Positions 6,360-8,654 of a stretch of 14,676 bases of DNA are shown here, piece by piece (position 1 is the first letter of the stretch; each line of letters begins with the position of its first letter). The notes below the pieces were generated by a model, which saw only the letters and a program-made list of their open reading frames with translations, was not told the origin of the DNA and searched no databases. The translations under genes and the position numbers were made by a program. Origin of the DNA: a virus (lineage: Duplodnaviria; Heunggongvirae; Uroviricota; Caudoviricetes; Schitoviridae); IMG/VR virus record IMGVR_UViG_3300028490_000001, positions 1 to 14,676 of that record. The stretch is one strand, 5' to 3'.

Positions 6360-6436
6360 CGCATGTTAGCTCAGCCTGGTAGAGCACTGGTTTGAAGAAC
6401 CAGGTGTCCCTAGTTCAAATCTAGGACGTGCGACCA
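6360..6436 (+). tRNA. tRNA-Phe(GAA) by anticodon, with Pro-like body
   Basis: Acceptor CGCATGT/ACGTGCG; D-arm GCTC-AGCCTGGTA-GAGC; anticodon arm CTGGT-TT GAA GA-ACCAG; TTCAAAT; A73; CCA. Confidence 0.88.
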
Positions 6437-6446
6437 AGTAAAATGT

Positions 6447-6522
6447 TGTGGTATAGCTCAGTTGGTAGAGTAGCTCCCTGTTAAGGAGAAAGTCCCTGGT
6501 TCGAGCCCAGGTATCACAGCCA
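6447..6522 (+). tRNA. tRNA-Asn(GTT)
   Basis: U1-A72, G73; anticodon loop CT GTT AA; T-loop TTCGAGC; CCA. Confidence 0.93.
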
Positions 6523-6530
6523 AAAGAAAT

Positions 6531-6566
6531 GTTCACGTAGCTCAGTTGTTAGAGCATCGGATTCCT
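6531..6566 (+). tRNA. 5' half of an interrupted tRNA (Trp-CCA or Arg-CCT)
   Basis: GTTCACG TA GCTC-AGTTGTTA-GAGC A TCGGA TT CC(T); the anticodon stem TCGGA finds its partner TCCGA only at 6998-7002. Confidence 0.85.
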
Positions 6567-6592
6567 GACTTTAAGTCTATCGAGTGTATAAT
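6565..6592 (+). promoter_or_regulatory. Putative sigma70-type promoter for the HNH gene
   Basis: CTGACT (6565-6570), 16-nt spacer, perfect TATAAT (6587-6592), about 20 nt before ATG 6612. Confidence 0.45.
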
Positions 6593-6995
6593 ATATATAA
6601 AGGATTTTAGCATGGAAAGACAAATTAAAGACAGTGAGTTATATATAGAGAATTCAAAATCAGTAAGGTCACATGTTCGTAAAAGAATATTGAAAGATAA
6701 TCTTATACCATACAAGTGTAGCATTTGCAACTCACCTCCATCATGGAGAGGGGAACCAATGTCTTTAGTGTTGGACCATGAAAATGGTGTGAACAATGAC
6801 CACAGACTTAATAATCTAAGGTTCTTGTGTCCAAACTGTAACCATCAGCAACCAACTTATGCTGGAAAGAACAAAAAGCGTAGAGAAGATAAGTTATGTA
6901 TGGACTGTGAAAAAGTTATATACAAAACATCTACCAGATGCAATCGTTGTTCACAAAAGCGTAAATATATTGATGGAACATTCTCTAAATAAACA
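6567..6995 (+). mobile_element. 429-nt HNH cassette inserted in a tRNA anticodon loop
   Basis: Removing 429 nt restores a 7-nt anticodon loop and a full cloverleaf; the cassette is promoter-like leader + SD + HNH ORF + 3 nt. Confidence 0.8.
6612..6992 (+). CDS. HNH homing-type endonuclease with Zn-binding CxxC motifs (126 aa)
   Basis: CSIC...LDHENGVNNDHRLNNLRFLCPNCNH core plus C-terminal CMDC/CNRC; AAGGA SD before ATG 6612. The track start at 6546 lies inside the tRNA half. Confidence 0.9.
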   Translation: MERQIKDSELYIENSKSVRSHVRKRILKDNLIPYKCSICNSPPSWRGEPMSLVLDHENGVNNDHRLNNLRFLCPNCNHQQPTYAGKNKKRREDKLCMDCEKVIYKTSTRCNRCSQKRKYIDGTFSK

Positions 6996-7035
6996 AATCC
7001 GAAGGTCGAGGGTTAAACTCCTTCCGTGTTCGCCA
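6996..7035 (+). tRNA. 3' half of the interrupted tRNA
   Basis: AA TCCGA AGGTC GAGGG-TTAAACT-CCTTC CGTGTTC G CCA. Confidence 0.85.
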
Positions 7036-7043
7036 AAAAAGAA

Positions 7044-7131
7044 GGTTCAGTGTTAGAGCGGTTTATTATTCTTCCTTGCTAAGGAAGTGAGGTGAAAGCC
7101 TCCATTGGTTCGAATCCAATCTGAACCTCCA
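7044..7131 (+). tRNA. tRNA-Ser(GCT)
   Basis: GGTTCAG/CTGAACC; CTTCC-TT GCT AA-GGAAG; long variable arm GAGGT-GAAA-GCCTC; TTCGAAT; CCA. Confidence 0.93.
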
Positions 7132-7136
7132 CCTTT

Positions 7137-7211
7137 TCTCGATTAACTCAGCGGTAGAGTGCTTCCCCGATAAGGAAGATGTCACTGGTTCAAGTCCAGT
7201 ATCGAGTACCA
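7137..7211 (+). tRNA. tRNA-Ile(GAT)
   Basis: CTTCC-CC GAT AA-GGAAG (C33); T-arm ACTGG-TTCAAGT-CCAGT; A73; CCA; 1:72 mismatch. Confidence 0.88.
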
Positions 7212-7218
7212 AACATAT

Positions 7219-7293
7219 CGCGGGATAGAAGACTGGTAATTCGCTAGGCTCATAACCTAGAGTACGTTGGTTCGAATCCAACTCCCGCCACCA
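7219..7293 (+). tRNA. tRNA-Met(CAT), initiator-like
   Basis: CGCGGGA start with C1:C72 mismatch; loop CT CAT AA; only two of the three initiator G-C pairs (A29-U41); CCA. Confidence 0.9.
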
Positions 7294-7302
7294 CATTAAT
7301 TA

Positions 7303-7387
7303 TGAGCCATGTCCCTATTGAGGGAGTAAAGCAACAGGAGTGTACATTACTGTTGTATAGTAATTGTCAAAAGATTCATGGCTCACC
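7303..7387 (+). ncRNA. Four-way-junction tRNA-like element
   Basis: 9-bp closing stem TGAGCCATG/CATGGCTCA; arms TCCCT-ATTG-AGGGA and GCAACAG/CTGTTGT; T-like arm AATT-GTCAAAA-GATT; ends ACC(T). Confidence 0.5.
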
Positions 7388-7392
7388 TTAAC

Positions 7393-7469
7393 GGACAGGT
7401 AGCTCAGCTGGTTAGAGCACTCAGCTCATAACCGAGTGGTCGCAGGTTCAAGTCCTGTTCTGTCCACCA
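7393..7469 (+). tRNA. tRNA(CAT), probably Ile2 (lysidine), otherwise elongator Met
   Basis: GGACAGG/TCTGTCC; GCTC-AGCTGGTTA-GAGC; loop CT CAT AA; A73; CCA; overall resemblance to bacterial Ile2 tRNAs. Confidence 0.9.
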
Positions 7470-7741: not shown

Positions 7742-7849
7742 ATGTCATTCATTAAGTTTGTAAAAACAAATATGAGTAAAAAAGTTTATACCAAAATGTT
7801 TCCAGTACACATAGCCGACAATAGTGGAGTATATCACCTCATAAAATAA
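7742..7849 (+). CDS. 35-aa micro-ORF
   Basis: AAAGGA SD; MSFIKFVKTNMSKKVYTKMFPVHIADNSGVYHLIK. Confidence 0.45.
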   Translation: MSFIKFVKTNMSKKVYTKMFPVHIADNSGVYHLIK

Positions 7850-7852
7850 CAT

Positions 7853-7944
7853 GGGGGAGTATGAAATAGAATGGTAGAAATACCTTAGCAAGGGCGCAAG
7901 TCCCAGCTTGACTTCAGGTGGTTTGATTCCACCCTCCTCCACCA
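7853..7944 (+). ncRNA. 92-nt alanine-identity tRNA mimic (tmRNA TLD-like)
   Basis: Acceptor GGGGGAG/CTCCTCC with G3:U70, A73, CCA; T-arm GGTGG-TTTGATT-CCACC; interior has two GNRA hairpins instead of D and anticodon arms. Confidence 0.7.
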
Positions 7945-7997
7945 TTACAGAACCATCACATTCGAAAATGATGTTGGTTTATATAAAAGGGGCCCAT

Positions 7998-8654
7998 ATG
8001 GCATCAGTACTAGACACACTTGGAATATCTAAAGAGGTAATCGCACAAGTAGAGCCGGAAGAAGTTTACGAAGGTAGTACTTTACCTGCAGGACTATATA
8101 AAGTAGTTGTAGATAAAGCGTACATTAGAAAGACTGATTCAGGAGCTAACATGCTCGAAGTTGATTTCAAGATGGAAGACGGAACAGACTTTCACTATTC
8201 TACCTGTGTATTATCAGGAGATGAAAAAGGTAACAAGTCTACCTACACTTCAAAGCAAGGAAAAGAGGTTGCACTTCCAGGTGTAGTATCTTTAACAAAA
8301 TTCCTTACAGCGATAGATAGCGTAAAAGCTAATGCAATCGAAGGTGAAGTTGACCACAGAGGTAAAGGTAACATTAAAGCATTGTGCTTCGATGGACTTC
8401 AAGGTAAGGCACTATTAGTTGGTGTAAACCAAGAAGAAAGCTTCTATCAAGGTGATGTACTCATTAAGAATGACGTGAAGTATTGGCTAGATGAATCTGG
8501 TAAAAACTCTGCTGGTGAAGATTTGAAAGAAAAAGTAGAAGAATCACTAGAGAAGCACCCGCTTAAAAAGTTAAAACAAGCAGGTGGCAATACTCCTTCA
8601 GCAGGAGCAGGAGCCGGAGCAGGTAAATCTGCATCTTCAGAATCAGGCTGGTAA
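7998..8654 (+). CDS. ssb: Single-stranded DNA-binding protein, N4 gp45-like
   Basis: AY..K..SGAN and SGDEKGNKSTY...GKE..LPG resemble N4 SSB; Gly/Ala-rich tail; AAAGGGG SD before ATG 7998. The track start at 7908 lies in the ncRNA. Confidence 0.85.
   Translation: MASVLDTLGISKEVIAQVEPEEVYEGSTLPAGLYKVVVDKAYIRKTDSGANMLEVDFKMEDGTDFHYSTCVLSGDEKGNKSTYTSKQGKEVALPGVVSLTKFLTAIDSVKANAIEGEVDHRGKGNIKALCFDGLQGKALLVGVNQEESFYQGDVLIKNDVKYWLDESGKNSAGEDLKEKVEESLEKHPLKKLKQAGGNTPSAGAGAGAGKSASSESGW

Follow-up and report, generated by a model that had tools for sequence, protein, structure and literature searches.

The DNA analyzed in this study (14,676 nt, hereafter “the window”) forms the beginning (14.7 kb) of a complete phage genome of 78.7 kb that has 127-bp direct terminal repeats and a G+C content of 37.7%. 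The phage is N4-like: its minus strand encodes a virion RNA polymerase of 1714 amino acids, and genes for a primase, a Sak4-like annealing protein, an SSB, and a RusA-type resolvase are located on its plus strand. Seven tRNA genes (Gln, Phe, Asn, Ser, Ile, Met, and Met), called by ARAGORN at its default settings and by Rfam at gathering scores, are clustered at positions 6273-7469. The subject of this report, a tRNA-like RNA gene of 92 nt at positions 7853-7944 of the plus strand, is found 380 nt beyond this cluster. It begins 3 nt past a 35-codon open reading frame (ORF) and ends 45 nt short of the SSB gene (7989-8654), and it was not called under the settings that returned the seven tRNAs. 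The complete 78.7-kb genome contains no tRNA-Ala gene.

Other structured features are present in this part of the genome. A structured, ORF-poor stretch (5831-6187) heads the tRNA array and is conserved in related phages, the loci of which are designated here by L numbers (L018:1-186, L048:1250-1367, and L049 at about 740-917). Its copies have the blocks UUUAUGCAAACAGUUUU and AAACCUGUUACG in common, some of them feature a CCA end, and none was matched by an Rfam model; in L048, an acceptor-like stem of 7 bp closes the stretch (118 nt). The stretch is always followed directly by the first tRNA-like gene that lacks an anticodon. Within the array, an apparent tRNA gene (6534-7026) is split by an insert of ca. 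450 nt encoding an HNH endonuclease (ORF 6546-6992; PHROG HNH, E 6e-31), and the joined halves would give an acceptor stem with two U:U mismatches. From its sequence, this arrangement looks like a homing-endonuclease insertion or a tRNA intron; homing endonuclease genes are common in the tRNA arrays of these phages. Between the last tRNA or tRNA-like gene and the ribosome-binding site of the SSB gene lies a long hairpin (GAACCAnn ... ATACGATTAT ... nnTGGTTC, 7949-7985), which is conserved in nearly all relatives (L002, L018, L020, L021, L030, L031, and L032) and may serve the SSB gene as a promoter or translational operator.

The acceptor stem of the 92-nt element is composed of GGGGGAG at 7853-7859 (G3 at 7855) and CUCCUCC at 7934-7940 (U70 at 7938), and all seven pairs are formed. 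It is followed by A73 (7941) and an encoded CCA (7942-7944). The original prediction, which was made from the sequence of the window, featured a perfect acceptor stem with G3:U70, A73, and an encoded CCA, and these can be read directly. The T-arm, GGUGG-UUUGAUU-CCACC (7917-7933), had been described as good; this description holds for the stem (5/5 pairs) and not for the loop, in which U56 replaces the C56 (UUC) that is present in 36/36 distinct canonical tRNAs of related phages. The unpaired linker UAUGAAAUAGAAU (7860-7872) occupies the place of the D-stem. It contains U8, A14, and the D-loop-like motif AAUGGUAG, and the sequence allows no D-stem: between positions 10-13 and 22-25 a single pair is possible, and in the minimum-energy fold the GG is buried in the adjacent hairpin. 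This hairpin (hairpin 1, GGUA-GAAA-UACC, 7873-7884) is located at the D-arm position. The stretch UUAGCAA (7885-7891) follows, between CC and GG, as an anticodon-loop-like relic. As had been anticipated, two Watson-Crick pairs alone (C31:G41 and C32:G40) support it in tRNA register, and the stretch would make no credible anticodon loop. Hairpin 2 (7887-7908) stands at the anticodon-arm position and comprises AGC, a 2 × 2 internal loop, the hairpin GGGC-GCAA-GUCC (7892-7903), and GCU. Neither a D-stem nor a tag ORF is present in the sequence as read, which agrees with the earlier description. The combination of U56 with a sequestered D-loop GG indicates that the usual elbow contact is not made.

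In the minimum-energy fold of the element (−31.2 kcal/mol, z −2.1), the acceptor stem and the T-arm are accompanied by hairpin 1 and by hairpin 2, which AGC/GCU lengthens; both of the short hairpins that had been foreseen are therefore in it. The TGAA/TTCA helix proposed to close the interior was not borne out. It appears in a near-optimal alternative (−29.9 kcal/mol), and comparative support for it is absent because its bases do not vary. When the threshold was relaxed to 80%, ARAGORN drew a cloverleaf that evaluates at −12 kcal/mol, versus −31.2 kcal/mol for the two-hairpin fold; for the orthologue described next, the respective values are −5.2 and −23.8 kcal/mol.

Relatives of the locus were gathered by way of the neighboring SSB protein from IMG/VR, JGI metagenomes, and an index of 5.8 billion proteins. 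Among the contigs reached from SSB homologues (12 were looked up), there was a single true orthologue of the element, L049:918-1009, in another metagenomic N4-like phage. The two copies are identical at 84/92 positions (the SSB proteins are 71% identical), and the flanks are identical at 34/76 and 28/71 positions (45% and 39%), i.e. at background; the element thus stands out as a conserved block with sharp boundaries. The L049 copy is found inside the tRNA array, ca. 1.5 kb from SSB, and its neighbors differ. That the block is conserved among other neighbors argues that it is a self-contained, mobile cassette acting in trans and not an element that works in cis on SSB. Four of the eight differences constitute two compensatory pairs (G1:C72 to U1:A72 and G7:C66 to A7:U66); single differences change a T-stem G:C to G:U and one base of the 5′ linker. 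The tetraloop of hairpin 1 is changed from GAAA to GCAA, and that of hairpin 2 from GCAA to ACAA, so the claim of two GNRA hairpins stands for the first and fails for the second in L049. Hairpin 1 is part of the minimum-energy fold of both orthologues, UUAGCAA is invariant, and U56 is shared. The core outside the acceptor stem is kept at 54/57 nt (three changes), which is above the conservation of the acceptor stem itself.

A covariance model (R1) was built from the window element and the L049 copy, which score 122 and 118 bits on it. An 89-nt sequence, L018:368-456 (identical in L019), was found to be a distant homologue, scoring 40.7 bits versus ≤23 for true tRNAs. It folds as a cloverleaf in which the D-like arm has 4 bp, a hairpin of 6-7 bp capped by 3-5 nt occupies the anticodon position, and the loop of the T-arm is aberrant; this cloverleaf with its D-arm-like hairpin points to descent from a tRNA. 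The motif UAU..AAYAG of the 5′ linker is common to the element and the L018 homologue. Hairpin 1 is not conserved in the latter, which has its own 4-bp D-like stem, and the counterpart of hairpin 2 is the 6-7-bp hairpin. Across the three homologues, the acceptor and T helices are 100% paired, and the T-stem column pair 66:80 is G:C, G:U, and A:U. For hairpin 2, 95% of cells are paired and two pairs are changed on both sides; with a homologue set of three, helix support beyond the acceptor and T arms is thin and derives partly from an alignment fitted to the model. Homologue covariation, suggested at the outset as a check, is thus observed at 1:72, at 7:66, and in the T-stem, with G3:U70 kept.

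Near and distant BLAST searches with the region against 50,697 phage genomes gave no match. With the 92 nt alone, BLAST returned only stretches of 30 nt (T-arm and acceptor) in Microbacterium phages and the 3′ end of one tmRNA, and exact and degenerate pattern scans of IMG/VR viral contigs and species genomes yielded zero matches. Judged by these searches, the family is rare or poorly sampled. On the comparative evidence above, the element is a real, conserved gene. An unannotated tRNA-like element of ca. 60 nt was seen in the Microbacterium phage Casend (MT657333; L065:368-431), between the SSB and MazG genes. It has GGGGGAG/CUCCCCC with G3:C70, a single central hairpin, and the T-arm GGUGG-UUCGAUU-CCACC, and elements of this type are found in 15 cultured Microbacterium phages. 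The Casend element could be an experimentally tractable relative of such an RNA.

Bacterial AlaRS requires no more than the set A73, G2:C71, G3:U70, and G4:C69 (PMC9976931). All of these and the CCA are invariant in the window element, L049, and L018 (3/3), and among these homologues G3:U70 is unchanged while the adjacent acceptor pairs co-vary. Known tRNA-Ala species also conserve G1:C72 (PMC9976931), unlike L049, which has U1:A72. The marks of the acceptor are enough for AlaRS to charge a minihelix (Francklyn and Schimmel 1989, as cited in PMC9976931). G3:U70 was present in 0/36 distinct canonical tRNAs of the related loci and in four of ca. 12 anticodon-less families; about eight other anticodon-less elements with an acceptor and CCA in the same loci are without alanine marks. 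The four that carry a GG start, G3:U70, and A73-CCA are 92 nt, 89 nt, 35 nt (L030:582-616), and 34 nt (L032:567-600, which is the same as L047:2227-2260) in length. The latter two, from sister phages, are hairpins with G1:C72, G2:C71, G3:U70, A73, and CCA. In the 35-nt form, 7 bp are followed by two tandem G/A pairs and then by another 3-4 bp, which gives a 12-layer helix with the geometry of minihelix-Ala; the 34-nt form is an approximate version of it, and a loop of 5-7 nt caps both. Several architectures in sister phages bear the same alanine marks, from which it seems that selection acts on the acceptor end and not on the body. The alanine identity of the element thus appears from these comparisons to be selected, and its RNA is probably alanylated. 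The central idea of the original prediction, an anticodon-less tRNA mimic of alanine identity, is upheld by the invariance of the full AlaRS set in three homologues in which neighboring pairs co-vary.

The element was compared with the known families that it resembles. Like a tRNA (RF00005), it has a 7-bp acceptor stem, a discriminator, a 3′ CCA, and the alanine identity set. Departures from a tRNA are the D-arm and the anticodon arm, which have one and two formable pairs, respectively, as noted above, and the T-loop, which reads UUUGAUU in both orthologues in place of a loop with T54-Ψ55-C56. The element shares the acceptor identity set of bacterial tRNA-Ala, minihelix-Ala, and microhelix-Ala, as well as a 7-bp acceptor stem stacked on a 5-bp T-stem. 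Unlike tRNA-Ala, it has neither a D-stem nor an anticodon arm, carries U56, and falls below the ARAGORN and Rfam thresholds for tRNA. The sequence features of minihelix-Ala (a coaxial acceptor/T helix of ca. 12 bp, G3:U70, and A73-CCA) are all present; unlike the laboratory minihelix, which AlaRS charges, the element is natural and conserved, and it is a putative AlaRS substrate. The Rfam search that had been recommended (tmRNA, tRNA, and Y RNA models) matched the element to no known family above threshold. In permissive mode, the sole clan match was one of 7.8 bits to positions 86-102 of the beta_tmRNA model, covering the T-arm, and neither homologue (L049 or L018) was matched by any Rfam model at E ≤ 1. 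YrlA (RF02553) is a bacterial and phage Y RNA-like RNA with a tRNA-mimicking domain (PMC4201824). The element is like it in being a noncoding RNA with a tRNA-like acceptor/T-arm module, and the YrlA family also occurs in phages. YrlA has a long Ro-binding stem formed from its ends and is not known to have an aminoacylatable CCA terminus; its model gave no match at E ≤ 10 on positions 7750-8050. RNAC and RNAD are small stable RNAs of the T4 tRNA region whose roles are unexplained (PMC3014915). They are likened to the element by description only, as non-tRNA small RNAs in the tRNA gene cluster of a lytic phage. We know of no report of alanine identity for either.

The original prediction had likened the element to a stand-alone tRNA-like domain (TLD) of tmRNA. 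Such RNAs exist: mycobacteriophage DS6A has a tag-less, TLD-only tmRNA that inhibits the host tmRNA, and tmRNAs devoid of a coding sequence are also found in jakobid and oomycete mitochondria and in Mallomonadaceae plastids (PMC4131195, PMC11915505). The element could accordingly be an ssrA homologue reduced to its TLD that binds SmpB and blocks or re-routes host trans-translation. Its acceptor stem carries G3:U70 and is followed by A73, it possesses a T-arm, and there is neither a D-stem nor an anticodon nor a frame for a tag; at ca. 80-90 nt, this phage-encoded RNA approximates the size of the DS6A form (83 nt), for which there is precedent for an inhibitory activity (PMC4131195, PMC11915505), and a comparable inhibitory or decoy role is plausible for the element. 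The TGAA/TTCA helix that abuts the T-arm in the near-optimal fold would also be in keeping with a tmRNA. However, the DS6A TLD (L063:28478-28560), employed as a positive control, scored 43.2 bits end to end on RF00023 (positions 1-374) in the same mode in which the element gave a 7.8-bit local match to its T-arm; the homologues gave nothing at E ≤ 1. Since a tag-less tmRNA is detectable in this test, the element is not taken to be one. Conversely, the DS6A TLD scores 17.3 bits on R1, like any ordinary tRNA, and the tmRNA search in ARAGORN returned nothing for the element even at a 60% threshold (-ps60). The hallmarks of an ssrA end (the D-loop consensus followed by P2a, and GGAC before the T-arm) are missing, the T-loop has U56 in place of the C56 of tmRNAs, and the TGAA/TTCA helix starts from nt 10, ahead of the D-loop-like GG, whereas P2a of tmRNA comes after the D-loop. 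Further, DS6A has an unpaired D-loop and then a single P2 hairpin and ends in ACUA, whereas in the element a four-way junction holds two internal hairpins and the CCA is encoded; its L018 homologue is a cloverleaf with a D-like arm. Membership in the tmRNA family is thus improbable, and the original prediction is not supported in that sense. Tag-less tmRNAs and T4 RNAC/RNAD (PMC3014915) were known beforehand; the element differs in architecture and is not recovered by the tmRNA test. A further account, which we regard as unlikely although somewhat less so than tmRNA ancestry, is that a decayed tRNA gene serves as a processing signal for RNase P and 3′ nucleases, the released RNA having no function and the alanine marks being inherited baggage. 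The position of the element in a plus-strand operon, 3 nt past a small ORF and 45 nt ahead of SSB, accords with this account, as do the many elements in this phage group with an acceptor, a T-arm, and CCA but no alanine marks; ordinary tRNAs fill the slot preceding SSB in most relatives. Arguing against it, the orthologue has other neighbors and is therefore not bound to one transcript junction, the best-conserved part is the core (54/57 nt), which processing does not need, and the G3:U70 wobble is kept while adjoining pairs are replaced. The occurrence of G3:U70 in four of ca. 12 anticodon-less families, versus none of the 36 true tRNAs, also counts against it.

Could the element nonetheless decode? 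It might be an aberrant working tRNA, either a tRNA-Ala(AGC) of class-II shape or one in which an 8-nt loop presents AGCA and four bases are read. The cloverleaf drawn by ARAGORN at 80% has a perfect 5-bp extra arm (AAGUC/GACUU) and is called tRNA-?(Ala|Cys)(agca), the change of G44 to A in L049 converts U29:G44 of that drawing to U29:A44, and CC-UUAGCAA-GG resembles the tip of an anticodon arm. The energies given above for both orthologues disfavor this fold, however, and in it an A30/C43 mismatch is conserved and the D-stem consists at best of U:G, G/A, and A:U. The elbow pair is removed by U56, the Rfam tRNA model gives no match beyond the T-arm, and L018 has a closed 3-5-nt loop at the equivalent place. 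Bacteria are not known to use A34 in tRNA-Ala, which counts further against decoding; we consider it very improbable. Least probable, to the point of being nearly negligible, is the notion that there is no RNA, with the conservation arising from a minus-strand ORF (7745-7945, 66 aa) or by chance. This ORF starts with ATG and covers the whole element, but the corresponding frame in L049 has no start codon or Met and stops after 43 codons, and nothing outside of the 92 nt is conserved. The eight differences fall 1, 3, and 4 times at codon positions 1, 2, and 3, respectively, and four of them form the two compensatory RNA pairs. As for chance, dinucleotide shuffles of the window contain, counting both strands, an average of 0.023 modules in which a 7/7 acceptor stem, a 5/5 T-stem, and NCCA are combined with G3:U70 and A73.

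Three other candidates were considered and rejected. For an intron-containing or mitochondrial-type tRNA, ARAGORN with -i and -mt gave nothing sensible. An attP-type partial copy of a tRNA is at odds with the presence and co-variation of both halves in an N4-like phage in which no integrase was seen. Regarding antisense targeting, the only notable match is one of 11 nt: CCUUAGCAAGG (7885-7895) is complementary at every base to the anticodon loop of the phage tRNA-Ser(GCU) together with its closing pairs (7074-7084). It was read as the trace of an ancestral anticodon loop and not as a target because any CC-UU-NNN-AA-GG loop complements a loop having the complementary triplet. The match is, on this reasoning, probably a by-product of anticodon-loop ancestry, and loop-loop pairing of the element with tRNA-Ser(GCU) may occur.

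The explanation that we favor, tentatively and at somewhat less than even odds, is that the element encodes a small and stable phage RNA of tRNA descent that takes no part in decoding, is probably charged with alanine, and works in trans on a factor by which acceptor arms are read. According to this proposal, the RNA would be transcribed from the plus strand together with early or middle genes and the tRNA cluster. It would be excised as a tRNA is, with RNase P cutting ahead of G7853 and 3′ trimming halting at the encoded CCA. The host AlaRS would then most likely load alanine onto it, since the acceptor/T half is intact with the full alanine set and AlaRS reads only that half. The other half would form a four-way junction in which a GNRA-capped hairpin replaces the D-arm and a closed hairpin replaces the anticodon arm, and the latter would make the reading of codons impossible. 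An RNA that cannot decode would be expected to act in trans, as a mimic or competitor at the readers of the acceptor end of (alanyl-)tRNA. Candidate targets for such a decoy may include AlaRS, EF-Tu, D-aminoacyl-tRNA deacylase, defense toxins that modify tRNA ends, and the ribosome-rescue machinery. The roles named in the original prediction, a decoy for SmpB, EF-Tu, or defense systems or a donor of alanine, may likewise apply. Genes for SmpB, FemAB, AlaRS, and a CCA-adding enzyme were all sought in the phage and none was found (the best match for SmpB, of 15 bits and with three stops, was below the cut-off); the partner would therefore be encoded by the host or be of an unrecognized type. In relatives, anti-defense genes of the sponge type (Sequestin and Acb2/Tad1-hairpin) are located a few kb upstream. 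Their proximity is compatible with a counter-defense neighborhood; it fits such a role and proves nothing. The conservation of the core (54/57 nt) is not predicted by a plain acceptor-end decoy and suggests a specific partner or recent transfer between phages.

The loci examined contain further tRNA-like elements that have an acceptor stem, a T-arm, and A/G-CCA, and neither a usable anticodon nor alanine marks: window positions 2843-2913 and 6188-6270, L032:72-132, L047:1643-1726, and L018:187-252 (the same element as L062:43-107). Several of these share the UUU (U56) T-loop, and the L018/L062 pair exhibits compensatory changes in the acceptor stem. At the level of sequence, these phages carry a whole set of tRNA mimics. 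Less extreme irregularities were also observed. L004:1734-1815 (the same as L029:448-529), in the slot preceding SSB, is a tRNA with normal acceptor, D, and T arms, the anticodon arm of which can close to CGUA-GAGG-UACG; ARAGORN assigns it the four-base anticodon gagg. Elsewhere in the genome of the phage under study, outside of the window (G000:C1:60127-60202), an isolated tRNA-like gene has an irregular anticodon loop and is called tRNA-?(Ser|Ile) with a two-base anticodon by ARAGORN. Finally, L049:654-738 is an 85-nt gene resembling a class-II tRNA-Tyr(GUA); it is located right after tRNA-Gln and is absent from the default ARAGORN report.

A broader and more speculative proposal, which is possible but which we hold to be rather doubtful, is that the marine N4-like group keeps AlaRS-chargeable, anticodon-less RNAs (four-way junctions of 92 and 89 nt and minihelices of 34-35 nt) as alanyl-RNA effectors off the decoding pathway. 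A partner of the 92-nt form would dock at its strongly conserved core of two hairpins, and such RNAs might jam ribosome rescue, sequester immune toxins that act on the 3′ ends of tRNAs by modification or cleavage, or donate alanine to a non-ribosomal acceptor.

The genes for tRNAs in phages are usually explained by codon supply or by the replacement of tRNAs that are cut by host defenses, and an RNA that retains only the chargeable end matches neither explanation. The genes for the alanine-marked RNAs described here are all overlooked by standard annotation with ARAGORN and Rfam. If it is alanylated, the element would be a natural counterpart of minihelix-Ala, for 35 years a tool in studies of the “operational RNA code”, and phages would then have two kinds of alanine tRNA mimic, built independently: this one and the tag-less tmRNA of DS6A. 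The apparent selection of the acceptor end makes it possible to test directly which factor recognizes an alanyl acceptor arm in the course of infection.
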